A stretch of DNA of 64,000 nt from Candidatus Altimarinota bacterium. Its GTDB lineage: Bacteria > Patescibacteriota > Gracilibacteria > 1-14-2-50-48-13. This document shows, piece after piece, positions 1-31,097 of the stretch (its first letter is position 1; every line of letters starts with the position of its first letter). Made by a program: the position numbers and the translations under genes. The notes beneath the pieces were generated by a model. It was not told where the DNA came from, made no database searches, and saw only the letters and a program-made list of their open reading frames with translations. The stretch spans positions 480,001-544,000 of the forward strand of contig JBKBWQ010000001.1 of NCBI GenBank assembly GCA_046314355.1, written 5' to 3'.

Positions 1-1407
1 AGATTTTGCACCGGATAATTCCACAGTCAATGGTGATGTACCTGCGATAGGGTCGGCCTCTATAAACGCCTTCGGAAGCTGCGTGTCGGTCGCATCTACT
101 TGGAAAATTTTAGTAGAAGTGGCGCCTTCTCCATTGATAGCCCGGACGGCAACCTTATATTTGCCGATTTGTTCAAAAGTACGGCTTTGTTTTGCTCCAG
201 CAGCTTCAAAAGTGCCGTCATTATCCATATCCCATTCTAAGGAACGAATATCAACTCCATTGAGTGTATTCGATGCATCAAAGTCCACTTTAAATGGTAC
301 TGGACCAGAGAGAATATCTGGAGTAGTTACGATCTTTAAGGTTGGTCTTATTTTTGTAAAAGTTAATGAGACTCCTCCATTTTCAGAACCTGGGCCATAG
401 GTTTCTTCAAGAATTTCTCCTGCTTTTCTACCTTGGTACGGCTGCATGAATTCAATAGTTGCCTGCATTTTTACATTATATAAACCTCCATTAAATCCTT
501 TATTGGTATAAGTATAATTTACTGTACGGCCAGTTCCTTCTGCTCCAGTATATTTACCATCCCCATCGAGATCCCATTGATATTTTTTTATACGGAAAAA
601 ATCAGTCTCTGATGGGAGTACCTGATCTGACACAGTAAACTGTACTTCCATTGGTGCTTCTAGATCTATAGTAGAGAGTAATGGTTCAAACTCTCCCGTC
701 GCTTCATTCTTATATGCTAGAATAATAGGAGTATTCTCTGCCTGTGTGATTGCTCTAGGAGCACGTATTGTTGAAAGAATAGCAACCCATGCAATGATAG
801 AAAATATGACTACTACAAAGGATATGATCATTGCCCAGAAAGCGGTACGCTTCGTATGTTTTTCATCCTTCTTTGCTAAAAGCAGTCGAAATAGACTTAT
901 AATAGCAATAATAAGGAAAATACCCGTAAAGAGCCCAAAGGATGTACTTACTAAAGTACTTAATATTCGAGGCATATCCTGCGTCGAAAGACCAAAACTG
1001 CTGAATATACTACTATTTGTGTTATACCCGAGAATCAATACTCCAACGAATAGGACAAAAAGAAAGGCAAAAAATCCAAAACATCCAGCAACTGCCCAAG
1101 GTCCACTGACCTTTCTTCCTTTGGCAACTGCAGTGTTTGCGATTTTTGTACCTGCAACTGGAGCAGCAGCAGGAGATGCAGCAGGAACAGTACCTGCTGC
1201 ATTAGTTTTTGGAACAACTCCGGGTGCGACAGGCGCAGGTTGCAGAAAAGAAGGAACATATACTGGCTGCTGCGGTTCTGGAATTGGAGCAGATACAGGA
1301 GCTTCAGCAGGCACCTCAGGATTTTGAGTAGGTGCTGCATCAGTATTTGGAACTGGATTTTCAGAAGGAAGAGTGTTTTTAGGCTGCTCTGGAATTTGAT
1401 CTGCCAT
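1..1407 (-). CDS. Membrane-anchored PKD-repeat protein (3' end runs off the window; absent from the ORF track)
   Basis: Manual translation from the ATG at 1407 is open to base 1. It reads MADQIPEQPKNTLPSENPVPN (Pro/Ala-rich), then three hydrophobic segments (WAVAGCFGFFAFLFVLFVGVLIL; FGLFTGIFLIIAIISLF; FWAMIISFVVVIFSIIAWVAIL), then PKD-like units (YQWDLDGDG, GPVPFKVDFDAS, LEWDMDNDGTFE, FEQIGKYKVAV, GTSPLTVELSG). It starts 15 nt after the stop of the 2865-aa gene. Confidence 0.85.
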   Translation of the reverse strand, partial: MADQIPEQPKNTLPSENPVPNTDAAPTQNPEVPAEAPVSAPIPEPQQPVYVPSFLQPAPVAPGVVPKTNAAGTVPAASPAAAPVAGTKIANTAVAKGRKVSGPWAVAGCFGFFAFLFVLFVGVLILGYNTNSSIFSSFGLSTQDMPRILSTLVSTSFGLFTGIFLIIAIISLFRLLLAKKDEKHTKRTAFWAMIISFVVVIFSIIAWVAILSTIRAPRAITQAENTPIILAYKNEATGEFEPLLSTIDLEAPMEVQFTVSDQVLPSETDFFRIKKYQWDLDGDGKYTGAEGTGRTVNYTYTNKGFNGGLYNVKMQATIEFMQPYQGRKAGEILEETYGPGSENGGVSLTFTKIRPTLKIVTTPDILSGPVPFKVDFDASNTLNGVDIRSLEWDMDNDGTFEAAGAKQSRTFEQIGKYKVAVRAINGEGATSTKIFQVDATDTQLPKAFIEADPIAGTSPLTVELSGAKS

Positions 1408-1422
1408 AATTAGGAAAAGATA

Positions 1423-4400
1423 TTAGGTGTTTCTAGGAGGTTCTGGTTTTCTAGGTGCAGGCGGCTGCTGCTGACCAGAAGGCGGTAGAGGTTTTTTAGG
1501 CATCCCTGTACCAGTATTTGGTCTTTGTCCACGAGATTGTACCTGTTGCTGAGCAGTCTGTAAATTGCGCGGTATGTAAGGGCGTTGTGCATTAGCTCTT
1601 TGTTGAGGTAATACTCCTGGCGCAGTCTTCTTTACAGGCGGTTCCTGAGTTACCTTCTCAGTATTTTCCGCTGGCGGTTTTGCTAGATCAGCACCCGGTT
1701 CAAATGGAAGTATATTTACTTCTGCAAATGGATCAAAAACAGGAGTTTCCTCTGCATTTTCTGCATCTACTTTTTTGTCCTGTTCATCCTGGAGAGCTTC
1801 CATACCCTCGTTAAAGGATTCCTCTGAATCATTATTATTTGTCGCAGGATGATCTGGACTCAATTCAGGTGCAAGCTCAGGACTTTGCGGAACAGTGAGT
1901 GGGGTAAGATCTGACGGTGATACAGCAAATGGATCAAATAATGGAGCGGTCTCAGAGGAAGGTTCAGCATCAGTAAAAGTCTGACTTGGCGCTTCTGTAG
2001 AGATAGCTGGCTCAACTGGAGCATCTTGGATCTGAGGTGTCATCTGCAGCCATGATGGTGCAGTACCATCAGCAGGAGGAATCACACCATCATCATGATG
2101 ACGATCCTCATTCTGCTCTACTACCGCAGGCTTTTCTTCAACTACTTCCGCCTCAACTGGAGCAGAGACTGGAGCCTCCTCATGAGCTTCTGCATTTTTT
2201 GGAAGTCTTGGGAGAGCTTCTTCCGCATTTTCATTAAATAACTGCTCTTCACCATCTTTTTTTCTAAATCGTGCAAAGAACTTCTTTACCGCTTCTCTAA
2301 TATTGAGAATATACTCCTCAAAGTCCACATGCTCATCAGGATGTCTACCTTTATATATAAGGAAAGAAACATAGAACCCAACTCCCAACAGTAAGATGAG
2401 AATAATGATACCCAGAAGGACTTTTCCAATAGTAAGTAATACAGAGACAAAGCCGGATGGTTCACCCGTAGCTGGAGCTGGCAATTCTTCAAGAGGTGCC
2501 TGATTTTGGTTTGCATTTGAATTTTCTGGATTTATCTTTGCTGCCACATACGTATAGAAATCTCTAGTAACACCAGTATCTAATATTATTGGTGTCTTCT
2601 CAGGCTCATTGAGTTCACTACTCTTCTGGATCATGTCCTGCAGTTTAGCAGATGCTCCTTGAGCAGCTAAGAAATCTTTTTCTGAAGACGCTTTCAGAAG
2701 AGTATCAAAGGAAGCCTTTGCCGGTTCATAAATCTTTCTACCCTGAAGAATATCGAGCTCACGAGAGAGTTTATCTAAAGTGATCTCAGGTTTCACCGAA
2801 CCATAATCAATAGAAACATCTGTACGTCCAAGACCAATAAGCATTTCCTGTACTTTCTTTTGAGGCTCTGCATCGAGCTTAGACTCTGTCACAAGACGGG
2901 ATGTGAAAGATACTGCAGCATCTACCCGGTCAGGTTTTTTGCCATAAAAGTTCTTTATTTGGAGAAGCATTTCACGGATAACACTTCGTTCTGTCGTAGC
3001 AAGTGGTCGTGTAGCAGCTAAGATATCTTTAAGGATCTGATCTAGTTCTCTTGGTGCTGCACCATGTGTATTCTGGATTGTCAGATCGTTTTCCTGAATA
3101 ATCTTTATCTCATCTCCAACGACTGGGATAGCATACAGTTTAGATAAAAGTGATGCTCTATTCTCTTGCGAAAGAGATGGATGCTCAAGCAGAGAAAGAA
3201 GAAGACGTATATTTTTCAGTCGTTTCTCCATACTAAGTGTCTTATCTGTAACTAGTCTTTCAAGCAGAATATTTAATGCTTTCTTAAGTTCAGGATCAGT
3301 TACAACTGTATCAATAGAAGCCATCAGTGCTTCCTTCGCCCGCTGCATCTCACTAAAGAGATCGTCAGATGCTACAGGCTTGAGATCAGGGTTATTCTTC
3401 AGCTCTTCCTGACACATTCTCTGAAGTACATTATTCTGTCCTCGTACGTAGACTGGAGTACATTCCCGAAGTGCTTTAAAGTAATCCTGGAATGTTGGGT
3501 CATTTTCTAATGCCGTGATCATTTCCAGTTTCACACTTACTGGAAGTTTTTCTGAAGCCAAAATAGTCTTTTTGAGATTATCTAGTTCATGCGCTGCTTC
3601 AGAGACAGTCATTTTACCATTTTTAATACGGTCTATTGTATCATTGATAATCTTTTTCTCCGCAGCATAAGATGCCGCATTAGAAGTCTTTGTTACGCGG
3701 TCGATATCACTATGAGTTGTACGTGAGAAAGCCTCCACATATCCTCCTAGCTTTGCTTTTAAGTTAGTATATCTCGCATCTTGTTTACTGATGACTGTAT
3801 AAAGCTCATTTAATGCTTTTAGTGAGTTACCGGCAGGATCAGAACTCGTCGCAGCTTCTGATAAAGCTTTTTTATACTTATCAAGATATGGTTTAAATAT
3901 TGCGCCACCTTCAGCATCAAAGATAGCTTCAAGAGTTCCCACTGAGCCGTTAAGGGTAGAGACAATTTTTGCATCTACTTCCCGGGATTTATCCGCAAGT
4001 TCAGGAATAGTCGAAAGCCCCTTTCTCGCATCAGATACTTGAGAAAGCATAGTGATACTAGGAAATACCTGCTGTCTTTTCTGATCAATTTCTGTGACTA
4101 ATGATGCTCTACGTGAGAGATCTTCTGCGGAAGTAATAGGAATCGCATTTACTATTCCACGGGCATTTTTCAGTGCTGTATCTGCTTGTATGCTTAGGCT
4201 TGCAATCAGCTTCTCATAAAGTACAGGATCATTCGTAAGTCTCTTATCGTTGATCCATACTGAAAGCTGTTTCTCAAGCTGTGGAAGAAGTACGCTACTG
4301 TCTTTTGCAGCAAGAAGAGCATCGATTTCCTTATAATACGTATCCTTCTCAGAGGAACTAAGGGTGGTACTAGATTCTATACTTCTCTTCATTTCCTGCA

Positions 4401-7400
4401 GCCATCCGTTTAGTCCGGAGACGATAGTAGTATCCACTTTTGTTTTTTCAGCAGGAGGTATCCATGAAGCATTTGTTATAGAGTTCTTTAGGTCTTTTAA
4501 TGCTTTAAGTGTATTAGTAAGACCAGAATTTGTATTCAGATCATTCTCAAGATTCTTTGCAATAAGACCTCCCTGCCCTGCAACTTGCTTGAAGGTAGTA
4601 GATATCCGCTCCGATGCCTTATCTGAAATCTGGCTAATACTATTATTCACTTCCTTTGTAATCAGAGTTTTGACATCTGTCCCAATATTCTGCTGATTCA
4701 TGAGGCTCAATATAGCATCTTGGATCTTCTTTGCACGGGTTACAGGATCATCATTCTGATAACTTGACTGAAGTATATTTATTCGATCAAGAAGATCCTT
4801 TCTCTCAGCTTCAGAGAGAGTAGTAGTATTTCTAATGATTTCACTCACCTTTGTAACGAGAGTTTTCGTACTTGAATCAACATCGCTCTTTATCTGCTGC
4901 TTTGTAGAGTCAGGTATAAGTGTAGAGTTCATGATATCTTTGAGGATCTGCTCCATTTTAGTACTCTTCACATCCACACTTACAGTACTATTTTTTAGAC
5001 CCGCAAGTTCATTGAAGTATTTTGAGAGCAAAGTATTTCCAGTCTTTTCCGCATCTGTAAGAGCATTTACAAGACCAGCCTTGAGATTATCTACAGCATC
5101 TACTACCATTTTATTTTCAAGAGTTCTATCCACAGGAGCTACAGCCACAAAAGAGGCAATTTTGAGTAGCTGTGCCTTGTCTTCAGCACTTAATCCAGAG
5201 GTATTTATTTTTTTAAGAATTTGCTCAAAGGTATCAAGCCGTGCATCCGGACTTGTTTGAGAGTTTAGTGCTTCAAAAAGAGCCTTGAACTGATCATTAT
5301 AAAGGTTTTCATCTTTTCGTTTAAGATACTCTGCAATCACAGATGCATCACTTGAGTAAAGATTATAATCGTTACATGCAAGACGTGCCTCTCCATTCGC
5401 ATTCAGAACGAGTACAGTATTTGTACAACCTACAAGAGACGTTGGACCAACAATCTTATACCCAGAAACGTTCGCAGGTACTACTGGTGCACTTGGATTT
5501 GTAGCACTTGATGTCGTAATGTTCTGAATAAGTTTCTTGATCTCTTCGATATCTTTTGCTGTAGGAGCAGCAGGTTTGACAGAACCATCCTGATTTGAGT
5601 ATGCAGGCTGTGAGGTATTGATATTAGGATTTGTGGTTGGCACAGTGGTACCGCCAGGCAAGGTATGCACTGGAGGAACATCAGGAAGATCATCATCGTC
5701 AGTGGTAGTTCCATTCCCATTTGAGTTATTTATCTGAGCAACTATTGTATTCGTGTTTGGGTTAGCAGTAGTACCAGGAAGATATCCATTTGAAGGAGTT
5801 ACTACACCATTCTGATTTGTATTAAATGGTGTATACGGTAAAGCAGTATTCGTATTCCCGCCTCCTCCAACAATTGGAGTCGTCTGAGTATTTGAATTTC
5901 CATTACCAATAGTATTTGGATTAGTTCCATTATTGCTGTTCCCATTGCTAGTGTTCGGATTATTCGCAATCGTATTGGTATTACTATTCGTATAGTTATC
6001 TACCACCGCCTGCTCTGCTGGAGTAAGATCTGCAGGTACTTTTTTCACCTGGAATACGACATTATCCGTAGCGGTCTTTCCTTTATCATCGATACTTACT
6101 GACACTGCATATACACCGCATGTTGCAAAAGTATATGGTAAATTCAAGCCACTGTTCGTAATCGTTTTTGGAAGTTCACCTTGAGTATCAGAACATCCTC
6201 CAACCACAACTGAAGTTTTCTCAATCTTCCAAACATATTTTGCATCAGGTGATACAGGATCTCCTGTCATCAAAATAGCCTGAGCACTTAGATTTACGGG
6301 AGATGAGACAAGCCATGGGATAGTTTTTCCGCCATCTGGACCTCTAGGGCTAGATATTCTAATACTTGGCTCAGGTACCTGAGGAGTTTGGATAAAAAAA
6401 GCTTCAGAATAAAGAGTATATGACTTCTGGTTATCCGTAACAGCAGCATTTTCAAGATCTCCATCAAACACTTGGGCCCCTATCTGATACATAAATTTTG
6501 CTCCAGATGAACCATAAGGCATGATCGTAATATTTCTGCTTGCCACTTCCTGACTAATCTCACTCTGCATTTCCTTACCCTGTACTAGATAGAACCATCG
6601 GATTCTAGGTAAACCTGCCCGGTCAGGGTCTGCAAGATTTGTAAGTGTTGCTTTTACAGTTACAGGAGATGTAAGTGTTCCAAAGGGCTTTTCTACCATA
6701 AAAGAACTGTATGTAGGGAAAGTATTTTGTACTCTCACATACTTTGTAAGAGTGCTTGCTACGCCATTGTCTACTACTGTAAGTTTGATTTGCTGACATG
6801 ATTCTGCCAAAAGACTTAGGCTTTTAAATTGAATAACTTGTCTTTCCTGATTGCTGAAATTCGTATCTCCATCGATATTCCATGTAAAAGTATTATTACC
6901 ATCCACAGGCAGACCGTTATTTTTTACGGAATAGCTGCCGTCTAGTATATAATCCTGATTCTTTCTTACAAGATATCCCTCCATGTAGTCTCCTCCAACT
7001 TTACAAAGATTTGATATAGGTCTGAGAGAAATATTCCCAGAACTCTTTACTGCACTAATATCAAAGGCAGCAGCAGGATGTGAGTCATCTTTTATATATA
7101 CACTCTTACTTACTTTCGTCGGAATAGTTTTTCCTGTCTCATAGACAAAGAAATCTAGAATAAAATATCCTGACTGATTAAATTTAAATTCCTTTTGAAA
7201 TACCTGCAGACCTTCTGACATTGCAGGACCATCCATATTCGGGATTGACTGATTTACTCCACGAATAGAAATTCCTACTTTTTCCATAAATCTTCCTTTT
7301 ACCTGAGCGGTAAATATCTGACCTGCCTGGAAGATAATACCTGCATTGTCTGGGATCTGTTCCTTTTGTGCACCAAGGAAACTTACATCATATCCAAGCA

Positions 7401-10020: not shown

Positions 10021-10028
10021 AGAAAGTT

Positions 10029-10628
10029 TTATTTAATTATTCCGGTAGGACTTGCAGACACATACACCTTAGTATTTTCGTTATTTTCTATACTGCTCAC
10101 TTCTGGCGCTATTGCTCCTGTCTTTGACTTGAATTCATCAATATTTACAAGGTTTACGATGGCAATCACGATCGCATATGCAAAGAATATCAGTAGTGTC
10201 CCGATTGCGATGTTTATGATGGCAGTAATAGCCTCTTTCCGTTTATCAGTCTTATCACGGGAAAGAAGAATCTGTACTCCGAAGTAAATGATAATACCGA
10301 CAGCAACAAATATATAGAACTGCAGGAAGTAGTTAATCCATCCCAGTACAAGCTGTACGAAGCTATCCTGTCTCTGTATACCTCCTGGAAGATCTTCTGC
10401 AGCATTATCCAGTCCCGCTTCAAGTCCCTCCTGTGCATATGGAAAATTATCGTTTGGATTCGGAGTTATGCCAGGATTAAATGGAAAGTTTGAATCTCCA
10501 GGATTATAGACTGGTGTATTCTCGGCAAATGCCTCTGTTGGCGCAAAGAACAACAGAGCAGTTACAGTAAGCCCCAGAGCTATCAAAACTAGTCTAAATG
10601 TTTGTTTTATGTGTATTTTTGGCCCCAT
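10029..10628 (-). CDS. VirB2/TrbC-like (T4SS_pilin-type) pilin
   Basis: Signal peptide ending AFA-EN, a short acidic/Pro linker, then the hairpin FVQLVLGWINYFLQFYIFVAVGIIIYFGVQILLS-RDKTDKRKEA-ITAIINIAIGTLLIFFAYAIVIAIVNLV, which matches the pilin pattern abundant in Patescibacteria. It ends 8 nt before the 2865-aa gene. Confidence 0.75.
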   Translation of the reverse strand: MGPKIHIKQTFRLVLIALGLTVTALLFFAPTEAFAENTPVYNPGDSNFPFNPGITPNPNDNFPYAQEGLEAGLDNAAEDLPGGIQRQDSFVQLVLGWINYFLQFYIFVAVGIIIYFGVQILLSRDKTDKRKEAITAIINIAIGTLLIFFAYAIVIAIVNLVNIDEFKSKTGAIAPEVSSIENNENTKVYVSASPTGIIK

Positions 10629-10658
10629 TAAGCATGAGAAAAGAATTATATTCCTGTT

Positions 10659-10667: not shown

Positions 10668-10800
10668 TATATGAGCTGATTAGAAAAATACTACCCAGCT
10701 TGCGAAAAGCAAATTTGATGGGTTAATTTTAAAAAGTATTGCATGAATAAAAAAAGTAAGATACTTTAACGATATTTTCTATTTTTTGCCCCATATACTT

Positions 10801-11379: not shown

Positions 11380-11396
11380 ATCATTTCCAAAGATTC

Positions 11397-23400: not shown

Positions 23401-26400
23401 TCAGAAGTAATCTCCTTCACAGGGAGAGGAGCAATATTATACCGCACTCTCATAAGAGCTTTATTTGTATCCTGTTCTCTTATCTCAAGCTGAAATGGCT
23501 CACCTTGATTGTATATCGGAACTACTGCTTTATTTGTAGAGACACCGTCTCCCTGAGGTATATCTATAGCGCCATTGGGCTGCACACGCACTGATACCGG
23601 ATCCTCATGAGAAGAAATAGTAGATGCAGTCACTGCCTGACTCTTTCCGGAAAGAAGCCACCATCCTGCCATAAAGTCTTTCTTTGTAACATCGCCATAG
23701 TTTCCACCAAGCAGGTTGGTATACAGAATATTTGGCCTTAATCTCTGGATAAACTCCTTATAGAGAGTAAATCTGACTGGAATTCTTACGCTGTCCTTTG
23801 AGATAGTATCCTTTGCCTGACCTGAAAGTACGATTGTTACTTCTCCAGTAAACATAGTAGATTTTACTTTCACACGTGCTTTTCCATTTGTAAGAGTTTG
23901 TCCGTAAAATTTCTTACTTCCTGAAGGAAATACTGTGAGCTTTTCACCGTCGCTACCGTCGGATTTCACATCATAGAAATCAAGACCTTCAAAAGGAGAG
24001 AGTTCAAAAAGCACAGGATCATTCGTCTCTATGACATTTCCATATGCATCTTCTCCTTGATACTCAAGCATCATTTCCGTAAGATTTTTTCCTAACTTTG
24101 AGTCCTCAGTCTTAGGCTCTAACGGGCGCTCCACTTGAGATGTAAAGTGTACCTTTGACAAAGGTCCTGCAGTGAACTTCAAAGTAATATTTTGCGGAGA
24201 AAAGCTCTCCTGCTGATCCGTTACGGTAATGTTAGTCTCTCCTGCCTTATGTGACGGCGTAAAAGTAACTACTCCTTTTCCGTCTTTTATCTCAATTGTC
24301 TCTTCGACTTTTTCAAAGTATCCCTGATCCGCATATGATATACGGATCGTTCCATTATACGGGACAGCACTTCCAGATTTATCTGTGATAGCAATATCAG
24401 CAGTAATAGGAGCATCTTCAGTCACCGAGTAGCTTGGCTTTGCATTTCTAATTGTAGCCTTTGCCTGAAGACTTCCTTTTTTATATACTCTGAGTGACGC
24501 AGATTTTTTGATAGTATCAGAGATCTGTAGTCTCAGAGGGATGATATCTACAAAGTCAGGCGCACCTTCAGGCATTTCCCCTGCAGTCATAGTAATCTGA
24601 TTCACTTTTCCTACCATAAAATCTATTGGATTCTCAGTAGTAGTTTTGTTGCCAGGATACCCGTCCAATTTATCTCCGCTTTGAATATTAAGTGGAATAG
24701 CAGGATTCGTAGGAATAACAAACTGTGCCAACTGATCTGATATCGGCACTTCTTTTTTCTGACTATCCAAGAAAGAAAGCGTAATATGTGTTGTACCTCC
24801 TTCTATAAGTACACTCGGATTTACTTTCATATCCACAGACGCAATTTTGCTCTCAACGACCAGGAAGGTAGTTTTTACAGGTGGAAGTTCCAAAGCATCT
24901 TCCGGTGTAATTTCCACGAGATATTTTCCCGCTTCACTAGGAATAGAGAGTGGGACTGCATTCTTACCGATATTTATTCGAGATGTGAGTTTAGTATCAT
25001 TATATGGTTCAAATTCTCCTGTATCTGTATTTTCTTTCTTATATTCAATACTTACTTTGCCTGCTTTCTTCTCGAGAATATTTCCATTGGTATCTACTGC
25101 AGCAATACTTAGGGTATGGATCTTATCATCAGTAGTAAATATTGCTCCTTCACTGAAGCTCTTTTTTCCATTATCTTTTGTAGGAGAATAGAGATACGCA
25201 ACAGAAAGACTATCGCTTGTAGATTTTAATGTAAGCCAGTCAGATACGAGATCAGGAGTTAGTCTCTCAAAAGGCTGATCAGAGTTTGATGTCTTTTGTC
25301 TTACTACATGGAATCGGACCTTTCCTTCAATACCATTCGCTCCAAATGTAGGAAATATATTAAATGTTGCACTACCTTTTTCCGCCTTCTGTATTTTCTC
25401 TGCACTACTCATTGTCACCATTCTATTTGCCTGCTCATCTAGCTCTATCTGAATATAGTCAAAACTATTTCCTTCCAGTATTTGACCATCTCTTGTACGG
25501 AGTTGCGCCTGTACTTTGAGAGGCTCAATACTCTTTGTAGAAAGAATAGTTTTTTTAATATTATCTTTTCCCGATACTTTAAATGTAACTTTATCTACAT
25601 AGTCCTGTACATCTTTAAAACCATTACTGCCATCGATGATCTGAGCAGTACCATTTGTAATGACCCGTGTTTTGCTGTCAGAGAGGAAGACATTATTGTC
25701 TGATGGTGCCCCAACCATTGGCAGTCCGTCTCCATCGATATCCTGAAAAGTATTTCCAACACTCTCCGCCACTTTTCCTGCAGTCTCTCCAAATGCTTTT
25801 ACAGAATTTTCGAATTTTTTAAAATCATCAAGCAGATTAGATCCCCTTGTTACGACATCTTGTCCTGCCTCAGATATTCTCTTGGCAAAAGTCTCGTACT
25901 TTTCGTTATTATTTGGAAAAGTGATCGGCGGCGTAATAGAAGGAAGCCAGCAGTTTATAATAGCACCCGGCCACTCAAAGAGCGGTACTCCTGTTTGATT
26001 ATAGCTGCTGCCTTTCTTACAAGAAGTAACGATATCATTCGGATCTTCAACTTTTACAGCAATAGGATCAGGCATCGTGATCTGAGGCTTCTGCTCTTTT
26101 GTATAGGTAAGATTCTCAAGACCAAGAGGAACTGCATGCGGGAAAGCACTATCTGCGATAATCGTACCTGCCTCAAAACCGGTCTTATCTCCAAAGTAGG
26201 AAGGTACAACTTTTGGAGTATCTCCCTGAGAGAGGCTTTTATCAGAGCTTAGATAATTATGGAGCACATATTTATATTTTTCAGAAAGAGGCAAATGCTG
26301 CCAATAGATTGCAAATGAAAGACGCTGCTCCGCAACACTTACTTTCTTCTTATCATCTGTGATATCCTTTACGATCTCACTCTCTTTCAGTGCTTTATCA

Positions 26401-29400
26401 TAGTCAAAGAAGATATCTTTTAAAGTATTCTTGCCATTAGCAGCTCCTCCTTGAAGACTAGTTTGAGCAACGTAGTCATTAAGATATTGCTGAAAATGTC
26501 TGGCTATTTTTCTTGTCTCTAGAGTTATTTCTGTAATAGTCTTATCCACTGTACTTCGAGAATCTTCAGTCACATACGCAAAGCGTTTTTCCTTCTCAAA
26601 AACATTAAACCAGTCAAGATATGGGAATCTTAGATGTTCATAGTATTCAGTCCATTTTTTAATCACTGCTTTGTATGTAGTCTTCATAATACTATTTCCA
26701 TCCGCATCTGTTGATGGGGTTTGTTCACCTACACTTCCCCACTGTGGTATCGGATCATAGTGGAACATATCCACATAACGAGGACTGTCGACAGGTAGAT
26801 CAAAGGAAGTGGAGTTTTTAAGTTGTTTTGCAATAGTCTCATTTGTCGGCTCCTTATGTTTGATGATACTGACAATCGATTCCTTCTTATCAAGACCTAG
26901 TTTTTCTTCGCCGTTTGGAACCTGCTTCATTGTTCCTACATAGTTCGTAGTAACTATAGGGTCAGCACCTTTTGTTACGATGAGCCATTCTCTCTTATCT
27001 GGCACTAAAGCTGGTGGAAGTTGTTCTCTGGCACCATAATGCCCTTCAATATAAGCAGAAGAAGTATTCTGTAATCTGTTTACATCTGTAACAAGCATTT
27101 TTCTTACAGCCTCCTGAGCAGCACTAAGCGGCATACCATAATCAGCATACAAAAGACATGCCTGATAGCTTGTCTCAGCTTTTACTTCCTCCTCTACAGG
27201 AGTAATACTATATCTATTTTGAGCTTTTATCTGGTCTCGGTAAGGTGCAACATCTTGTCCTTTTGTAGATTGAGTCTCGATACCATTCTGAGGTGCAGAG
27301 TCAAATACTGAACCTGAGAAGAAAGCTCTTACCTTTTGGGAAAGTAGAGACAGATACTGAGATTTGAAATTCGCTTCAATGGATCCAAGATTTATATTGA
27401 TTGCAATAAGAGCAGCTGCCAGATCCTTAGCATTCATTTTGCTATTTGTTGATCCCGCAAATTTTTCTGCTGTTATCTGCATCTGTGGTGCCATAACGCC
27501 ATCTGAACTTGATGGACCCATGATAAAATTCTGCGGTACAGGAGTAGTTCGGTTCTCTCTTGTAATCACCTTAGTTGCCTTTAGAGGCTCATAAGATGGA
27601 GATTCGACACTCTTCGAACCAGCAGTATCTTTGATAGGTACAAGTGCCTTCATAGGCTGACAATCATGTTTTTTATTTGCATCATCCTCAGGATCAAATT
27701 TTGACTGACTAACAGCAAGCTGCACAATAGAAAGAAGCATATTGTATTTTGACTCTTCTGCAGATTCAGGGAGAGTTCTATATACTGCAACCAGCTTATC
27801 TAAAGGATCACTAGATTTCGGATCAGGATTATATCCAGGCTTTTGAATAGCATCCAGTGCAGCAGCAGCAACAGCAAAATCTAAAAATTCTTCAAAAGTT
27901 TTTACCTTCTCTTCCGGATTTTCCACCTTTCTTAATATTGCCACTACACGGTCTATTTCATTTCCACTTTCCCAACGTACATCCGCAGGTGCAGTCTTCA
28001 TACGTAAAAGAATACCTTGCTGGAGTCCACCTTTTTCAAGTTTATCAGCCTGACCGAGACTTAAGAAACCCTTAATAAATCCTCCGATTTTATTTGTAAG
28101 AGCTGTCTTTTGTCCACGTACTGCTTCAATAGTAGCAGTGAGCATTCCCTTTTCAACACTTGCATCTGGAGGAACAGCATCTCCATCATCTGTAAACTTC
28201 AAATTTGGAGCCGTACAGTCTCCAAAATATCCAGATTTATAACCTCCAGAGTTTTTTCCTAAACCTAAACCTGTATTATCAGGATAAAGAGTCTCATAGT
28301 ACTCTGCCTCAGGACGTTTTTTCAGTTCAGAACCGTCATCTTTTCCATACTCCATATATGCATCAGAGGCAATATTATAGAGCTTGTTTGCTTCTACGGT
28401 CTGTGCGGTCGTCTGAGGGAGTCTTTTTGCATATTCTATAAAATCTTTTAAACGAGCAGCATCACCTCTTTCACCAGAAGACATATATTGCTCCCAACTA
28501 AGTATCTCTGCAGGAATATCACTTTTTCTCTGTGTGTCTGCATTCTTAATGGCATTGTCACGTGAATTTTGCGCAGGAGTAGTATCTCCCTTAGCACAGG
28601 CAACTGATCTATCATAGTTGAGCATTGCCCGAGCTCGAGCTATTTCATATTTAGCATTTGCTACATCGTTGGCTTGCTCTACAGGATTTACAGAGACATT
28701 ATAAAATTTTAACCACTGATTTTCTGATTCCAATTTCTTTTCATCTTTTTGTATCTCTTTTTCACGTATATCCCAATTATGTCTTTGTGAATTACTCGGA
28801 CACGGAGGAGGATTACCAGTGCTATCTTTTACAGGGGTAGCCTTCATAGTATCGATTTGTACCTGCAAAGGCGTAATATCAAATGCGACTTGTGCATCCA
28901 CTTTTTCATTTCTCCATCCTGAACCACCGGGTCGTCCTTCATAAATCGGATCATTCCATCCTTCCACACTTGGATCTCCTACAGATTCTTCACCTCGTAC
29001 AAATAGTCCGCCTTCCGGAGCACCACCTACGAATATGGTACAATCTTCAGCCGTAAACGGTTTATTAACAAGATGCAGTACTGCCTTCCGGTATGGCTTA
29101 TAAGTAGAATTTTCAATTGTTTCTCCACTTATTTTTCCTGACCACACCGTGTCCCAGATAGCCCTTAATTCAAAAAATGGAACTGGCGCTTTTATATCAT
29201 CTACGTACTCAATATATTTTTCCTGAGTTGCATTTGGATTATAATATACCGTAGGCTCAGTCCGGCTGCCACCTTTTATTGATCCGCCAAAGTATCCACT
29301 ATATCCTTGAAGTTTATAATCAGCCTTTGCGTCTCCTTCAATATGCACTTTTACCTCATCAAAATCCTGACCTGTAAAAGGTATATATCTGTTTCTCGAT

Positions 29401-31097
29401 GCATCTTTCAGATCTTTAGCACTTGTATCAATCTTATCTTTCGTAAAGGCAATCTTGCTTGTACCGACATTACCAAGGTAGTTATTGCTCCACTCAGGAC
29501 TTGGATCCACATCAATATACGGATGAGGTCTCGTTGCTCTTATGGTTTTGAGAAATTTACCAAAATAGTTTACTTCTCCACTTGGTATATCGATCATCAG
29601 ATTCTTATCATTCTGATATTTATCAAGCATCTGGTCCATGACTTTCTCCATACTATCATTTACGGAGCGAATATTCTTCTGTGCATCCTGGTCAAGCTGA
29701 GCAATGATCTTGAAGAGACTTGTACCATCAGCTCCCTTTAGCTGACCAAAGAAATCCCATCTTCCGCTGCCATTAAAGTATGCGGCATAACTATTTGTAA
29801 GAAAACCAAATACGTCAGTGGATCTGCTCAAAAACTTTTCAATAGGATCCTTTGTAAAAATATCCGGAATAAGATTCTGCGTATTCCCCTCTGAATCTTC
29901 GAATTTTCCTGAAAGATCCTTTGCAGTAGCAAATACATCTTTTTTTGTAGGATCGCTGTCTTTAATATTTGCATTATCAGTCGGAACTTTTCCAGTGTCC
30001 TGAAGCTTTTGCTTTGTTTTAGGGTAAAATTTATCCGTAAGTTCAGTAAGCCATTTTTTTGTATATCTCATATATGAGATATTGTCCCAGTTCTCTATAA
30101 ATTCCTGATACCCCTGCAGAGAGCTCTGTGTCACCTGTCCAAGTTCTCTAAAGAGATCCATCTGGATGGCTTTTTTACTAAACTCACTGTATTCCCCGCC
30201 AATATAGTAGGAGTGATTTTTATCAAAATAAGTAGCTAGTTCTTTTCTCTGTGCATCCATGAACTCACCCCGCATTTTTTCGAGTACCTTATTGTACTCT
30301 GTATTTGTTGTGTCCTTCATCTTTGCATCAGAAAGCTCCTCTGAATGCTTAGTATCTAGTACATACTGCTGCCAGCTCACAGGATATCGTATTACTCCAT
30401 GCCATACTTCAGCCTTCAGAGCACCAGAGAGTTCATTATAAATAAACTGATCTCTTTCATGGTCATAATAATATGCAGGATCTTCAAAATCCGTATATGG
30501 ATATACACTTAAAAATGTTCTTGTATCCTTTGTCACAAGAGGCAAAGGAATATCTCCGATCATTACCACTCCCTGCAGTTTCGCAATTTTGTTATCCGTG
30601 ATATCTCCTTCCGTATAGAGTCTATCTAGTACTTCCTGGATCCTCCATGGTTTCTCAGGATTATCCATAGAAGGAACTGGCACGATCATTACTTTCGTAT
30701 TCTGAAGTTGACGCTGAATATCATCAGCGTACCTCAGGATTCTTCCTCCAACAGTCTTTGGAAGATTATTGGCGATGTTTGTAACTCCAAGAGTATTCAA
30801 ATCAGAGGAAAGTGAGCCATCAGCAAGAATACGGCTGATATCTGCATTCATAGTTCCTGCAGTAGTATCGCCTGTAAGTCCTCCATCTTCCTTTGCATCC
30901 TTTAGAAGTTCCTCAGCTACCAGGATAGTCACAAGTCCCATAGTATCCCGGGTAGCCTCTGCGGCTTCTACAATAGGATCAAGAATAATGACTTGAGACA
31001 GCATGATCGTAGTGATCAATATGCTTGAGACTGTTCTTTTATATATATATGGGAAAACCTGCATAGAAAGTTCAGAAACCTGAGAGAATTTTGTCAT
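11460..31097 (-). CDS. Giant 6545-aa secreted multidomain protein (C25-like N-domain, Ig-like domains, FG-GAP/VCBS repeats, DUF11-like domain, Cys-rich, helical and Pro-rich regions)
   Basis: 19.6-kb uninterrupted ORF with an N-terminal signal-like segment (KRTVSSILITTIMLSQVIILDPIVEA). It carries Ca-binding DxDxDG loops (FDIDSDGRKDILF, GDFDGNGTDDLFA, EDLNGDGQRDIVY, DKDEDGIPDLWD) and a DUF11-like segment (VSKRGTDLNGNKIRKGDKIKYEI...LADRTP...LRITYQMEV). No obvious C-terminal TM. Confidence 0.85.
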   Translation of the reverse strand: MTKFSQVSELSMQVFPYIYKRTVSSILITTIMLSQVIILDPIVEAAEATRDTMGLVTILVAEELLKDAKEDGGLTGDTTAGTMNADISRILADGSLSSDLNTLGVTNIANNLPKTVGGRILRYADDIQRQLQNTKVMIVPVPSMDNPEKPWRIQEVLDRLYTEGDITDNKIAKLQGVVMIGDIPLPLVTKDTRTFLSVYPYTDFEDPAYYYDHERDQFIYNELSGALKAEVWHGVIRYPVSWQQYVLDTKHSEELSDAKMKDTTNTEYNKVLEKMRGEFMDAQRKELATYFDKNHSYYIGGEYSEFSKKAIQMDLFRELGQVTQSSLQGYQEFIENWDNISYMRYTKKWLTELTDKFYPKTKQKLQDTGKVPTDNANIKDSDPTKKDVFATAKDLSGKFEDSEGNTQNLIPDIFTKDPIEKFLSRSTDVFGFLTNSYAAYFNGSGRWDFFGQLKGADGTSLFKIIAQLDQDAQKNIRSVNDSMEKVMDQMLDKYQNDKNLMIDIPSGEVNYFGKFLKTIRATRPHPYIDVDPSPEWSNNYLGNVGTSKIAFTKDKIDTSAKDLKDASRNRYIPFTGQDFDEVKVHIEGDAKADYKLQGYSGYFGGSIKGGSRTEPTVYYNPNATQEKYIEYVDDIKAPVPFFELRAIWDTVWSGKISGETIENSTYKPYRKAVLHLVNKPFTAEDCTIFVGGAPEGGLFVRGEESVGDPSVEGWNDPIYEGRPGGSGWRNEKVDAQVAFDITPLQVQIDTMKATPVKDSTGNPPPCPSNSQRHNWDIREKEIQKDEKKLESENQWLKFYNVSVNPVEQANDVANAKYEIARARAMLNYDRSVACAKGDTTPAQNSRDNAIKNADTQRKSDIPAEILSWEQYMSSGERGDAARLKDFIEYAKRLPQTTAQTVEANKLYNIASDAYMEYGKDDGSELKKRPEAEYYETLYPDNTGLGLGKNSGGYKSGYFGDCTAPNLKFTDDGDAVPPDASVEKGMLTATIEAVRGQKTALTNKIGGFIKGFLSLGQADKLEKGGLQQGILLRMKTAPADVRWESGNEIDRVVAILRKVENPEEKVKTFEEFLDFAVAAAALDAIQKPGYNPDPKSSDPLDKLVAVYRTLPESAEESKYNMLLSIVQLAVSQSKFDPEDDANKKHDCQPMKALVPIKDTAGSKSVESPSYEPLKATKVITRENRTTPVPQNFIMGPSSSDGVMAPQMQITAEKFAGSTNSKMNAKDLAAALIAININLGSIEANFKSQYLSLLSQKVRAFFSGSVFDSAPQNGIETQSTKGQDVAPYRDQIKAQNRYSITPVEEEVKAETSYQACLLYADYGMPLSAAQEAVRKMLVTDVNRLQNTSSAYIEGHYGAREQLPPALVPDKREWLIVTKGADPIVTTNYVGTMKQVPNGEEKLGLDKKESIVSIIKHKEPTNETIAKQLKNSTSFDLPVDSPRYVDMFHYDPIPQWGSVGEQTPSTDADGNSIMKTTYKAVIKKWTEYYEHLRFPYLDWFNVFEKEKRFAYVTEDSRSTVDKTITEITLETRKIARHFQQYLNDYVAQTSLQGGAANGKNTLKDIFFDYDKALKESEIVKDITDDKKKVSVAEQRLSFAIYWQHLPLSEKYKYVLHNYLSSDKSLSQGDTPKVVPSYFGDKTGFEAGTIIADSAFPHAVPLGLENLTYTKEQKPQITMPDPIAVKVEDPNDIVTSCKKGSSYNQTGVPLFEWPGAIINCWLPSITPPITFPNNNEKYETFAKRISEAGQDVVTRGSNLLDDFKKFENSVKAFGETAGKVAESVGNTFQDIDGDGLPMVGAPSDNNVFLSDSKTRVITNGTAQIIDGSNGFKDVQDYVDKVTFKVSGKDNIKKTILSTKSIEPLKVQAQLRTRDGQILEGNSFDYIQIELDEQANRMVTMSSAEKIQKAEKGSATFNIFPTFGANGIEGKVRFHVVRQKTSNSDQPFERLTPDLVSDWLTLKSTSDSLSVAYLYSPTKDNGKKSFSEGAIFTTDDKIHTLSIAAVDTNGNILEKKAGKVSIEYKKENTDTGEFEPYNDTKLTSRINIGKNAVPLSIPSEAGKYLVEITPEDALELPPVKTTFLVVESKIASVDMKVNPSVLIEGGTTHITLSFLDSQKKEVPISDQLAQFVIPTNPAIPLNIQSGDKLDGYPGNKTTTENPIDFMVGKVNQITMTAGEMPEGAPDFVDIIPLRLQISDTIKKSASLRVYKKGSLQAKATIRNAKPSYSVTEDAPITADIAITDKSGSAVPYNGTIRISYADQGYFEKVEETIEIKDGKGVVTFTPSHKAGETNITVTDQQESFSPQNITLKFTAGPLSKVHFTSQVERPLEPKTEDSKLGKNLTEMMLEYQGEDAYGNVIETNDPVLFELSPFEGLDFYDVKSDGSDGEKLTVFPSGSKKFYGQTLTNGKARVKVKSTMFTGEVTIVLSGQAKDTISKDSVRIPVRFTLYKEFIQRLRPNILYTNLLGGNYGDVTKKDFMAGWWLLSGKSQAVTASTISSHEDPVSVRVQPNGAIDIPQGDGVSTNKAVVPIYNQGEPFQLEIREQDTNKALMRVRYNIAPLPVKEITSESQIQTVPGIYLRKSANTKISRNDASKQSVITYDGKELGVLGDNLQFLPTGLPPEIDVNTDRKDLLEMTMKTPDGTDVMDMYVVLAQENIYETSKGFKSDIEAAKSKKESQNYEAQASTGKTGIQFSESLKKTTEILASKNIITPVEDKDRYVNKVIVSRSELDQYKGGTFLEASTSPLYTILGGNVVLAGVDTILNPNNVPASIAAANTAANQKSQPVIKVQASSGGILSTYALQDLNRSNKTRDLISMQQIFRAKNIKVGILSNTVEPGLFADMQFANSVKIPEKVDTDVLADRIRIKKTFVTIIPESKNGEVIIPARTESETVTAAEIYPDGSYLINDIRFDVKRSFAANVVKYSIVEKSSNKILGNSVLVLDPSSLRVLPYSEGTSLLYSSKEQGVYIEIKDTGSSFDEVTREIKKANDLILSLLPEHFLEVVQPSYVLTVKDPTQTNLNTKNPLVLQLRNTSSVLIADLYIQLAESPLEFTASTQDAVPAEELKGTVSTTLPVEETAGEVRIKNTDGSVLWAFEESTFENRILPPASWNIVPEQVGPDMNVYSLRQGTTVMAKVSFKLSARFTGNKEVTNIAYKAPGTYLKKIDPYVVWNRDVAGAITGFNLKEFNAAFSVAKPPEFVAKVLELTSRNLYSASYKYQENHSQMNLVLSDKSNLSQKKTLLELQGSYSPQVLPMKLYNGENTTGIYFAGNEVKNAVLAEGYTLERRIDGQDRVYWKVKRNEEGNISEEKNIAKVTRDGSVVLNDAAYSWKISYTQGNYSASLYEKSTGTLLDSISILLKPGTITRVLPYKNEEISLYNPSYQGVYADILDSNYYLDQNAFSIRKKNVNLDEIVSFKKDTFFIINANQNFNLVPETNELTQTGKILPPILGLVDNATAQKVANIYMSLNENAPQISIKQDPAQTERSAKENRTAVLSTFSNTISVKDNDTELQIIQKTDALEQVLWTISKQDVSQGTLTENLADIKVSALSQNGLYLTLLPKGETDETKAFAVLSYKNDNRYTPLRYIGKNTIGEAIQRPGVYIRVADPLVSLSADPVLFTQSVYFGYDEAFVLGANGVLQSKNPNIFTINTALTQPLPSTALYLSMNAFNVDIAHEFYKFSNLAFSTTKIPERLTVKGTDAILPSSGNVLTLINHKEWGSLQKGVEIITDTLGHVVSAALDGTPVAQWTSTLAPTLLEKTKLSYDPSIVKGMGFTLLKENGEKLLTYIITPNFVEKATLTTTTSGTTESTSVSTDPVRAAAQIADKTFTDTQEALTLLDGHGVFVEKRVNDNWFSIGYEATGESTNNPYALVLKDQTLSTSKTATAGNTGIGVEDALTDSGSGAGWTGDFKNMLLFAAGNSVGKSTLPHMSEALINIGDPVISLKIEPTDNRTNDMFTNDVGEFIMEHAHAGINTIKVFDIDSDGRKDILFAEKTGKIFGIKNMGGNPVMWKYTGEIFDVPDGIKKLLVTKLDNDDKLDLMVSTGKDNIIATRNESNTAMSYADGSIVSLINLGNGMYQRGVNAIKELGKVDDMQMGDFDGNGTDDLFAITDKKELKVVLIAPTLPDGSKTPYKVITLDTLGVNMSNRELGAEDVYIRFQNTKLYDQSEAPKAMPTSPDVVFVPNIEGQGVTNANSFSNEDPGKKGYESFLSGTQGTFSSVDGLRNQMVKMLVSSEQPYIRSGGAKTAALDDILFRLKKTDPFAFMNEGIIGVLNPVNNIQQAIITNEITSTPTQFAVSKRGTDLNGNKIRKGDKIKYEIAASTTLPEIKGFDLADRTPLSMDLLPGSITCELQENGKTAWKVLSLADECTLSGIGGGNLFSLYFKNLSLKNGDKLRITYQMEVAEEPVEYHLNLLGYRDAAAAMAATAGININSGLSAIGADLAIGDKAKRMGANITSDTFGGKGSFYYRYQESNPLFEKQFIKDKTQKPGEGNPIMDQLAKLMGYEYDDDGNLIQKDPDKKPDENAVKDFAKGLGKTLQTATSTDKDEDGIPDLWDNEIVVKPEYKNAAVVKAGDIDIAGAVTGGVSQLAQGASTALDQVNKRLSENNCYFGGCGLFPKNKAFLVPGKSELFEGPDIPVFAFPTPTGLVPVWPPDGTYFNSKSLSQIRVYFSVTLSARMAMAVCVGPFDFGMADTSALVGVVTPLPNANCYPFILPDVFDLVKLCQSLESALTGVVTAATEMIGGGAYAAARVKKRGIAEAGAEPDGAFIAYHYEFNDPALTPSYMEQFATLAKNSSAPNTSYNKHAGGFPKIPMDWVERQMEELLKLLKIPTIYIRLPDPRSLIGNVIKGAATMSENALKPDPTAAEKAALEAKTKNDTRATLESKAKSLGIVDENVPDGALKTLVLNEEKKDALQEVNSMDLATLRRRAAELNISGSTTLKEDALRTQVINKTYIEVETEINAKNRANLLTIAKEELLLLSSSATDDQIRSMIAAKEQQAIAATRERCLARMDQKAQTRTDTNNQTVQNIDDLISKTAEGLSSAKDYVNTTLNNVQGDINCEGDFIGQQMQNVLQDASWYTELSGQVSDPSLVNSFLMKQKGIGDALDFLSKIPLVNITHEEVVFEYPWIAPEKFFEIKQNIQYAMDQSIENFQNFYKANADCFFDDPKAYNTISEPNFSIIPRMQASGTPRVPTIDTNGSVSTGADISIRCLAVARVGSDAWVNIQGLQKNLERLNQYANIQVKFKKYVQWKSYTVGRLVETTTGVIDFLSGYITRQQKIINNWKKAIYQIKNYSKTFQIVVDVFQNYRNSCADCVNDKGSALASTLDALGNIIPDIPVIRVPRWPDIVVDFSNVRAQMRITIPDIKLRPVDFQIPKLSPITFPNISLESSISQQDLSLMMKNGINVRFPVLPALPDLPDLPEFPQLDLPKLADLPPPPIIPKLDATITTTIQILDKILQNICLVRKNLIPIPEWQLASQIEKLTRGTTLFKIKENKSSDIVLPGIDQIKISGYINLVNKKPYTALTDLVKTTAEQWNKMVTGNVQSFVSGIVTTASEATSKVLSDAAASFKDEDGRSALDRLSQGINSAVETTNGALSSARNSVQQVSDDLADTMSNSIQISDTGSTGDAIAETLNEDQLKENMQVAAVMQSPDVQNLFVQMDALKSLMENVSTADGISFDNYIPSLKAQIELLKTSGDTLGEARHIAIEKIENIIALAEKEGKALEVDEPVSSDSFQGIRNWKATRNNLETLHKDLEQAQYSINNMSSVNTMEDFRSVLADAGMLADSFANTITASTDLSLQTPEERNNEQQKNLEVILQNAAAIVPIDYREMMAPEIEESQKVISDTYDIPEAGVRTSDITPITASTSDGTLIAAATTTSSSTTTTASTAKEDTPPDPSSSETASNLLVQLTDLPGSFVPIMNYSGGNDEDSGLDSAEDLNGDGQRDIVYYQGRDISIKYNVLSQAQGSNLGSAKAMYTGPKRIYTKTINSLLPATPRVQNFRVLGQNARQAIISLMPQTRGDSSLAKPSVYAIRFHRTPDAWLTDSLVSKDAVQNNYVEYYIYASPESSYTLDASRVPALSEELKVADQVKKEQLKSEELGTPVERVIVVKKASQMQAILSFQKSGVPYSTTIAPYNPETKAYGTFTTPILLHPQREQDTVSPNITLEKGAYMTVPTELKDGLEIKAYASDPSEIATMYWDKDTDSDSDKDGDATNDKDVVCSDPKNPAIASCKVSKTKNNTYVVNAPVFKISPFAADQVGKKFYMRLHAVDTVGNMAVQDLTIEPRTTNIVIDSYDSENGIVEGHIDPPSEGLELRVMRMKSETGSTTKNISELPLPQSIKTGVNGTFRIEGILAKESLGILGSTNVQVAEVTKAGKIQVNDTYEGKTLDVLVKQGSTYVRKLFSTTTLKTSTTVKSTDASLGSSFLTKQGDVPTDQVHLQVYDKNKVRLQVNGEVQTVQILQENEWKNLYEFTKKNDTLVMNEGSAYDADMIGGETIIKNGMYVSMLLITVEGVQAGLLSIPLGQDNQMFDVKGK

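Follow-up and report, generated by a model that had tools for sequence, protein, structure and literature searches.

Here we describe a 64,000-nt stretch of genome G000 (G000:C1:480001-544000, hereafter the window, by which the whole stretch analyzed is meant), in which four large genes for envelope proteins lie on one strand. The source genome measures 1.69 Mb and is 98% complete. Under translation table 11, four minus-strand open reading frames (ORFs) encode a giant secreted protein (P0004), a free VirB2-like pilin (P0001), a pilin-fused large protein (P0002) and a PKD membrane protein (P0003), with gaps of 8 nt between the free pilin and fused genes and 15 nt between the fused and PKD genes. 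The number, common strand, lengths and spacing of these large ORFs, as given in a first-pass annotation of this DNA, are confirmed under table 11; the frames of all four are identical under table 25, and G000 uses the standard code 11. All four genes have homologues elsewhere and are therefore not chance ORFs. We read the locus, with moderate confidence, as two independent envelope modules that stand side by side only in this lineage: the giant, and an operon for a PKD surface fibre anchored by pilin hairpins.

The pilin, pilin-fused and PKD genes

The last three of the four genes, referred to here as the trio, comprise the following features (window coordinates).

10029..10628, minus strand: free VirB2-like pilin P0001, 199 aa, with signal peptide, two transmembrane (TM) helices and basic loop
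1423..10020, minus strand: pilin-fused large protein P0002, 2865 aa, with signal peptide, hairpin and C-terminal TM
9544..9762, minus strand: pilin hairpin of P0002, aa 87-159, from a PF18895 match and TM segments
6001..8073, minus strand: diverged Ig/PKD-like array of P0002, aa ~650-1340, from BLAST alignment with the fused proteins of relatives
2521..5823, minus strand: long region of P0002, aa ~1400-2500, common to G002 only, with repeated helix-like segments read by eye
2386..2442, minus strand: C-terminal TM of P0002, aa 2527-2545, followed by a disordered tail of ~320 aa
2044..2061, minus strand: tail motif APSWLQ, P0002 aa 2654-2659, the local form of 'IPDWLK'
1..1407, minus strand: PKD membrane protein P0003, 469 of its 803 aa within the window (full gene G000:C1:478996-481407)
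763..984, minus strand: pilin-like hairpin of P0003 (TM2, basic loop, TM3; aa ~142-215), from hhalign

Comparison with related genomes reveals that the trio is a conserved unit. In all of 15 genomes, G000 among them, one to three pilin genes (with one to three hairpins each), a gene for a fused protein of 858-3627 aa and one for a PKD-type protein of 648-1101 aa lie adjacent in this order on the same strand, and three of six more genomes are canonical as well (G004, G023 and G029, two of them cut by contig ends), bringing the total to 18 of 21. Since the genomes were chosen by a pilin match in a large ORF, this count informs gene order and not presence. In G005, a 348-aa ORF on the opposite strand lies ahead of the third gene. 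Of the 20 genomes for which full match lists were obtained, 18 have a PF18895-bearing ORF of at least 700 aa (none in G009; G003 is fragmentary). Pfam detected the pilin together with 4-8 PKD stretches in all five fused proteins scanned (G017, G019, G005, G032 and G020) and PKD arrays in all four third genes scanned (G000, G019, G025 and G010); the other trio assignments were made by BLAST clustering and a crude motif count. Two elements of the first-pass annotation, the close spacing of these three genes and the pilin hairpins as membrane modules, extend beyond the window, the gene order being kept across the class and hairpins recurring N-terminally on PKD-bearing proteins of relatives.

The free pilin matches PF18895 (E 2e-4) and TrbC/VirB2 (E 7e-4) in Pfam, with neither match reaching its curated cut-off. 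The corresponding region of the fused protein (aa 87-154) scores 25.9 bits against PF18895 by hmmscan and 31.9 bits in a six-frame search of the genome, relative to a cut-off of 26.6 bits, and the two hairpins share 35% identity, in line with the earlier description of P0002 as starting with the hairpin of the free pilin. The G002 orthologues reach 42.4 bits (fused protein) and 32.3 bits (free pilin). Residues 101-150 of the P0002 hairpin are common to 11 of 14 relatives, and each of the 15 fused proteins was seen to have a signal peptide and, after it, two TM helices with a short basic loop between them. No type IV pilin family appeared among the Pfam matches at E <= 0.1, and the topology is that of a two-helix hairpin; the class III signal peptide and single N-terminal helix that define type IV (modular) pilins were not found here. 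Beyond the hairpin, the array of P0002 aligns with fused proteins of relatives that carry 4-8 PKD stretches where scanned, and the segment next to its C-terminal TM has conserved counterparts in G017, G032 and G002. A C-terminal TM is present in P0002 and seven others of the 15 fused proteins, and absent from the remaining seven.

P0003 consists of a Pro-rich N-tail, TM1, a pilin-like hairpin and five PKD domains (PKD_4, E 2.6e-85, five stretches, above cut-off); its three hydrophobic segments and PKD content are as initially described. Nine 3-TM PKD proteins of this kind align over TM1, a conserved linker, TM2, the basic loop and TM3. When their profile was compared by hhalign with 16 pilin hairpins, a probability of 95.3% (E 2e-8) was obtained with 85 columns in register, versus 6.3% and 3.2% for reversed profiles and at most 0.9% for twenty column shuffles. 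Searched against 401 genomes of the phylum, the 3-TM profile matched, within the class, ORFs of ~700-840 aa across the entire profile; in other classes, most of the listed matches were ORFs of 103-250 aa, several in tandem, and usually covered the hairpin part only (positions ~40-120). The G021 homologue reaches 27.7 bits against PF18895. Judged from these alignments, the third hairpin is likely homologous to the pilin hairpins. A second form of the third gene, found in G019, G034, G014, G012 and G029 and probably in G020, encodes proteins that combine a signal peptide and PKD domains with a single TM and a long acidic tail.

The predicted cytoplasmic tails, which in fused proteins come after the C-terminal TM and in second-form PKD proteins after their single TM, contain a motif, [IVMLA]-P-[DES]-W-[LM]-[KQ] ('IPDWLK'), that often forms the last residues of the protein. 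It is present in 12 of 18 trios, on the fused protein in G000, G002, G025, G005, G037, G017 and G004, and on the PKD protein in G019, G034 (three times), G014 (twice), G012 and G029. The 21 tails of 15 trios (3,717 aa) gave 13 matches, whereas 2000 shuffling trials averaged 0.0075 and never exceeded 2, and no match fell in the remaining 25,409 aa of these proteins. Among G000 ORFs of at least 100 aa merely four carry the motif, and its interpretation as a general sorting signal was rejected on this ground. The N-tail of P0003 holds a related VPSFLQ. Several tails also repeat D-[LIP]-F-[GA]: in the PKD protein of G019 (L123:12980-16282) a 15-residue acidic unit with D-L-F-G is repeated ~16 times and is called by Pfam as nucleoporin FG repeats, and the tails of G017 and G032 repeat similar D-I-F-G / D-P-F-A units.

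The tail motif resembles the C-terminal peptide of FtsZ, a docking site for FtsA and other partners, which reads D[VI]PAF[LIM]R[KN]K in the same genomes (21 genomes). Both motifs are short (hydrophobic, Pro, x, aromatic, Leu/Met, basic) and terminate, or nearly terminate, a long disordered linker; unlike the FtsZ peptide, the tail motif has Trp for Phe and an acidic residue for Ala and sits on membrane proteins, and the resemblance is one of pattern only. In G000, ftsA adjoins ftsZ, a second FtsA-like gene is present, and no SepF match was found. The second FtsA-like protein (434 aa; PF14450, E 3e-13; G000:C1:607717-609021, or L144:1267-2571) is encoded away from the division genes and could be a PilM-type or other actin-like partner. 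A predicted complex of FtsA and the tail scored 0.00 without controls, and is evidence neither for nor against binding.

Taken as a working model, the hairpins of the free pilin, the fused protein and the PKD protein would co-assemble in the cytoplasmic membrane, with the free pilin as the bulk subunit, and the two large proteins would display their PKD arrays outward as an adhesive fibre. Extra TM anchors would hold the large proteins at the base, so that these two are not extruded, and the tail with its FtsZ-like motif may connect the assembly with a partner in the cytoplasm that sets its position. Host attachment is a putative role of these proteins.

Several observations weigh against this interpretation of the trio. 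Variant or broken arrangements occur in three of the 21 genomes (G015, G018 and G021). P0001 remains under the PF18895 cut-off at 21.7 bits (hmmscan) and 24.4 bits (six-frame genome search). Pfam finds no PKD domain in P0002, giving only a weak Y_Y_Y match for the array, and none of nine single 3-TM sequences matches PF18895 at E <= 1. The 3-TM PKD type is carried away from the trio in G034 and G020, and the tail motif is missing from six of 18 trios, one of which contains a masked stretch. Finally, TM segments were called by a Kyte-Doolittle scan, and the 'cytoplasmic' location of the tails was deduced by topology rules.

Type IV secretion genes in the source genome

The first-pass annotation had noted that no VirB4/VirD4 ATPase, relaxase or type IV pilus gene lies in the window, and a Pfam scan of the window ORFs, from which the ORF at 52756-53295 was left out, likewise gave no ATPase, relaxase or type IV pilus family. 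Past base 1 of the window, downstream of the PKD gene, are small membrane proteins, a DUF4112 protein and a NUDIX gene. ATPases of a type IV secretion system (T4SS) are encoded far from the trio: a VirB4-like ATPase (TraG P-loop PF19044, AAA_10 PF12846) at C1:1478933-1481056, ~1 Mb away, and a coupling-protein-like ATPase (TrwB_AAD_bind, TraG-D_C) at C1:846348-848747, ~360 kb away and near two multi-pilin ORFs. In the G000 genome, PF03135 and PF04610 gave no match and PF18895 gave 16 matches at E <= 1. The scattered ATPases agree with the accessible text of a report on the Gracilibacteria class, in which T4SS parts are described as unlinked or scattered (PMC12102498).

The surroundings of the two ATPase genes were also recorded. 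The VirB4-like gene adjoins genes for an MscS-type channel, ssb and a DsbA-like thioredoxin, with no pilin close by. At G000:C1:836208-848747, ORFs of 307 and 373 aa with several hairpins each are followed by a 776-aa protein with Lamin-tail-domain (LTD) and CHB_HEX_C matches, and the coupling-protein-like ATPase lies 8 kb off.

The main rival explanation for the trio is that its products are the major and minor (tip or decorating) subunits of an extruded VirB2-type pilus built by the dispersed T4SS of the genome. Membership of the hairpins in PF18895 and TrbC/VirB2 is consistent with such a pilus, as is the presence in the genome of both ATPases, the coupling-protein-like one next to multi-pilin ORFs; no ATPase lies in the window, however. 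A coupling-protein-like homologue was found ~5 kb from the trio of G028, but near this one trio only, among flanking genes that were clustered by BLAST and not scanned with ATPase profiles. The available portions of two reports, on unlinked T4SS genes in Gracilibacteria (PMC12102498) and on VirB2-like pilins that are essential in one tested system, a cultured Saccharibacterium (PMC10633639), fit an extruded structure as well. The decisive point is membrane retention. While seven of the 15 fused proteins have no C-terminal TM, which favours extrusion, the C-terminal TM of P0002 and seven others should retain these proteins in the membrane, and so should the extra N-terminal TM and cytoplasmic tail of P0003-type proteins. 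It is because of these second membrane anchors that we consider extrusion unlikely and prefer a PKD fibre held in the membrane.

The giant secreted protein

The giant and the interval that separates it from the trio comprise the following features.

11460..31097, minus strand: giant secreted protein P0004, 6545 aa, with its sole hydrophobic segment at the N-terminus (aa 25-43, Kyte-Doolittle)
29538..30815, minus strand: block A of the giant, aa 95-520, near the N-terminus in relatives, with a confident AlphaFold2 model
18618..19490, minus strand: block C of the giant, aa 3870-4160, with FG-GAP/VCBS-like D-x-D-x-DG repeats
14238..17510, minus strand: blocks D (Cys-rich, aa 4530-4860) and E (aa 5090-5620) of the giant, E being a Pro-rich LPxLP stretch with long helices
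11400..11434, no strand assigned: perfect inverted repeat of 14 bp around a loop of 7 nt, located between the stop codons of the convergent giant and phosphatase genes, folding at -23.3 / -23.1 kcal/mol by strand
10786..11379, plus strand: histidine phosphatase superfamily gene, probable ATG at 10801, PF00300 (His_Phos_1) E 3.4e-28

The gap between the giant and the free pilin is 831 nt and is occupied by a real gene on the plus strand, for the histidine phosphatase, which converges on the giant. The 14-bp hairpin between the two looks like a bidirectional terminator; it was not listed by a consensus terminator scan, and was read by eye and then folded. With an opposite-strand gene and this hairpin between them, the giant and the downstream three genes form separate transcription units. 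The earlier description of four co-oriented genes accordingly stands as regards the common strand, and falls as regards an uninterrupted block, which the phosphatase gene and hairpin break. A TGnTATAAT-like element was seen by eye ~31 nt upstream of the pilin start; it was unlisted by the scan on that strand, and we make no claim for it.

Comparison with other genomes indicates that the closeness of giant and trio is a local matter. In G002, the best assembled genome of the same family, 12.7 kb separates the end of the giant from the pilin. The G000 homologues of the intervening genes lie beyond the other side of the giant, at C1:533-551 kb; among the products of these genes are an LTD/PKD protein, a class II tRNA synthetase (72% identity) and a Wzy_C protein. 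The tight adjacency in the window therefore reflects a local rearrangement. Full match lists of 14 other giant-bearing genomes place a PF18895 match within 15 kb of the giant in three, namely G002, G017 (pilin 3.6 kb away, divergent) and G020 (6 kb, divergent), and none within that distance in the other 11; G003 was listed too, but is too fragmented for a giant-pilin distance. Rough arithmetic (no formal test), in which ~15 matches fall in ~8 places per ~1.2-Mb genome, gives ~0.3 neighbours per genome by chance, and giant-pilin linkage is at about this level. In G004 and G023, neither giant query matched, yet the trio is kept as a pilin-fused gene with its partner.

These results bear on the model of the first-pass annotation, a single four-gene machine with the hairpins as base, the PKD proteins as stalk and the giant as tip or effector. 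In its favour, all four genes encode envelope proteins on one strand within 31 kb, and pilins lie at the distances given above from the giants of G017 and G020. Giant and trio also lie within 13 kb of each other on one strand in both assembled genomes of the family, G002 being the second, and the accessory genes of the giant in G000, described below, closely follow two other pilin genes; both observations count against two independent modules, the former allowing a lineage-specific functional tie and the latter more than a chance association. Against a single machine, a housekeeping-type gene on the opposite strand and a hairpin part the giant from the trio, a tRNA synthetase gene is among those that do so in G002, pilins are missing from the 15 kb around the giant in 11 of 14 other genomes, with ~0.3 neighbours per genome expected by chance, and the trio persists where the giant was not found. 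A tip or effector role of the giant in the trio's structure is not upheld by this combination of a separate transcription unit, local rearrangement, chance-level linkage, accessory genes of its own and trios lacking the giant, and we regard a single machine as very unlikely. Across the class, the linkage within the trio is retained and that of the giant to the trio is not.

Accessory genes accompany the giant in other families. Directly after the giant and on the same strand, nine of 12 other-family genomes with downstream sequence carry a type A gene, whose product of ~200-260 aa has a signal peptide, a helical look and conserved Cys. It is followed in eight of the nine by a type B gene (~220-330 aa) and then by genes for proteins of ~540-920 and ~350-560 aa. 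Type A was defined by position and look, and by sequence only in part; only the B/C group, with 10 members from 8 genomes, holds together as a family by BLAST. Pfam assigned no family to the accessory proteins, giving only sub-threshold DUF4215 and Leptin matches. In G000, a type A gene (C1:763605-764276, profile E 3e-4) adjoins a type B gene (C1:762624-763595, profile E 5e-10), and ORFs of 549 and 455 aa come next; the giant lies ~250 kb away. The surrounding region, G000:C1:759690-766688, begins with the two pilin genes, for proteins of 148 aa and of 328 aa (the latter with a C-terminal hairpin and a Cys-rich N-domain), and continues with an oxidoreductase-like ORF ahead of the accessory genes and the 549- and 455-aa ORFs.

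Two further interpretations of the downstream genes were rejected. That larger giants have absorbed accessory genes is contradicted by their C-terminal blocks, which align with the C-termini of shorter giants, and is also countered by the A/B homologues located elsewhere in G000. The idea that the giant of other families is followed by pilin genes (~210 aa) fails on reading of these sequences, which show a signal peptide and no hairpin.

Among 41 relatives, G000 counted, homologues of the first 3000 aa of the giant were found in 28 and of the last 3000 aa in 30, nearly all in ORFs of 3400-7900 aa. Relatives of the giant come from metagenome-assembled genomes (MAGs) labelled Candidatus Peregrinibacteria, Peribacteria or Gracilibacteria. 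In a phylum-wide sample, a profile of block E matched 13 of 25 class members versus none of 376 genomes of other classes; one family gave 0 of 11. Giant loci confirmed by tblastn number 145 in a species-representative collection of named MAGs. A profile of block A retrieved 619 cluster representatives at E <= 1e-3 and 336 at E <= 1e-30, and among 150 listed representatives the block almost always begins in the first ~180 residues. We conclude that the giant represents one orthologous, class-restricted, Sec-exported family of a Peregrinibacteria/Gracilibacteria-type class, and it may be a surface or host-contact protein. The class as sampled mixes genomes that use TGA as a stop with genomes whose homologues hold in-frame TGA, which fits a Gracilibacteria-type class. 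The giant homologues of G024, G036, G013, G030 and G031 contain 1-14 in-frame TGA per matched stretch, as expected for code-25 members, and the giant family thus spans both genetic codes. One homologue (L077) is on a contig from a MAG that bears the label Nitrospirota; this is probably due to misbinning and not to transfer.

BLAST coverage by 16 relatives delimits six conserved blocks in the giant (aa 100-500, 2400-2560, 3880-4150, 4540-4850, 5100-5600 and 6150-6350). The AlphaFold2 model of block A, built on a 55-sequence alignment, has a mean predicted local distance difference test (pLDDT) score of 82 and no Foldseek match in PDB (best E 1.5). The model of blocks D and E is only partly confident (mean pLDDT 65) and also has no fold match in PDB; profile searches of PDB sequences with blocks A and D+E gave nothing at E < 0.03. 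The repeats of block C were seen by eye, Pfam giving a weak FG-GAP_3 match (E 0.05, 14.6 bits versus a cut-off of 26.9). A further idea, that block A is a peptidase C25 (gingipain)-like or caspase-like domain, was rejected, with no support from Pfam, PDB sequences or Foldseek.

Upstream of the giant are grpE on the opposite strand and genes for a PTPS_related membrane protein, a PRC-barrel protein and a class A penicillin-binding protein. The starts of the giant (minus strand) and of grpE (a TTG, plus strand) are merely 18 nt apart at 31097-31116, and the GrpE domain starts at residue 61 of its ORF; the true start codon of one or both genes is probably further in. Elsewhere in the window, 48960-52559 (plus strand) encodes a 1199-aa protein with three SLH domains, and 53447-55579 (minus strand) a 710-aa LTD and PKD protein whose G002 homologue directly adjoins the trio.

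Relation to known systems and implications

Hairpins fused to large passengers also occur in other Patescibacteria classes: G349 encodes fusions of 575 and 2184 aa (Big_5, TIG), G375 one of 3784 aa (TIG, Big_5, Laminin_G_3) and G208 one of 1887 aa. Big_5, TIG and Laminin_G_3 are adhesin-type domains, and no PKD partner or tail motif was seen at the fusions of these three genomes. At the corresponding loci (L181, L182 and L183), the fusions are followed by single-TM proteins of 270-435 aa. The recurrence of the hairpin on unrelated adhesin domains, together with PKD arrays on both large proteins, could mean that the hairpin is a reusable Sec-inserted anchor on three independent PKD adhesins kept by tandem duplication, without co-assembly, but we find this highly improbable given an order of pilin, fused and PKD genes kept in 18 of 21 genomes of many families, a passenger-free pilin that always comes first, and a tail motif placed on the fused or the PKD protein in complementary fashion.

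The nearest known relatives of the trio are the VirB2-like pilins and pilin arrays of patescibacterial T4SS, as in Ca. Southlakia epibionticum (Quinonero-Coronel et al. 2025, PMC12102498; Wang et al. 2023, PMC10633639). As far as the accessible parts of these reports go, the PF18895 family, multiple divergent pilin genes, tandem arrays and scattered T4SS genes are features held in common. In contrast to those systems, the hairpin here is fused to very large PKD/helical passengers and paired with a PKD membrane protein, and no VirB4, VirB6 or coupling protein is near the trio. The available text of both reports mentions no such pilin fusion and no PKD partner, the sole use of 'fused' being for VirB3-VirB4. 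The concept of a pilin module that carries a bulky adhesive module is known from modular (bimodular) type IV pilins, as described for PilB of Streptococcus sanguinis in the accessible part of 10.1101/2021.01.27.428410. The present proteins share the concept and differ in having a two-helix VirB2-type hairpin with a Sec signal, passengers 10-30 times larger and often a second membrane anchor.

The layout of P0002, with its N-terminal export and anchor region, Ig-like domains, long helical-looking repeats, C-terminal TM and cytoplasmic tail, is similar to that of Ebh, the giant rod-like wall-spanning protein of Staphylococcus. No sequence relationship to Ebh was found, P0002 having no Pfam match to the Ebh repeat families, and the N-terminal pilin hairpin is found in the present proteins only.

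Giant surface proteins have been noted in this lineage in general terms, in Vampirococcus lugosii (PMC8080830), in Peribacteria (PMC4736985) and in a census of 'huge proteins' (PMC11573180). Going by the accessible text of these reports, Vampirococcus lugosii has proteins of up to 4163 aa with integrin/PKD-type domains that are thought to make a fibrous surface, and Peregrinibacteria are enriched in proteins of more than 5000 aa without COG assignment. The giant differs from those general accounts in being one orthologous, class-restricted family with six blocks and accessory genes of its own. In sum, VirB2-like pilins and their arrays in Patescibacteria, and giants in general terms, are already known. 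Neither the trio, pilin-PKD fusions and the tail motif nor the giant as one family with accessory genes was found described in the literature as accessed, although the supplements of PMC12102498 and PMC8080830 may list such proteins.

A further-reaching interpretation, which we consider distinctly improbable, is that the trio would form a new surface organelle of modular VirB2 pilins, in which three paralogous hairpins make up a hetero-oligomer embedded in the membrane and displaying PKD fibres. Its disordered tail would mimic the FtsZ C-terminal peptide and dock onto FtsA or a related protein, letting the division machinery position the attachment or cell-bridging fibre, for instance at the septal plane of stacked epibionts. 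In the same interpretation, the giant with its four accessory proteins would be a second, fold-novel and class-specific system.

Patescibacteria presumably spend their lives in attachment to other cells, few of the parts that make the contact being known. The present analysis corrects a tempting over-reading, in that what appears as a 30-kb 'machine' resolves into two modules. The fold-matchless blocks of the giant are targets for structural biology and proteomics in a lineage that has cultured predatory members, and the short tail motif offers a concrete peptide for testing a cytoplasmic partner. The trio itself is defined as a recognisable three-gene unit in which a hairpin of secretion-pilin type acts as carrier of adhesin-type arrays, and a survey of such 'modular VirB2 pilins' across the phylum looks worthwhile.

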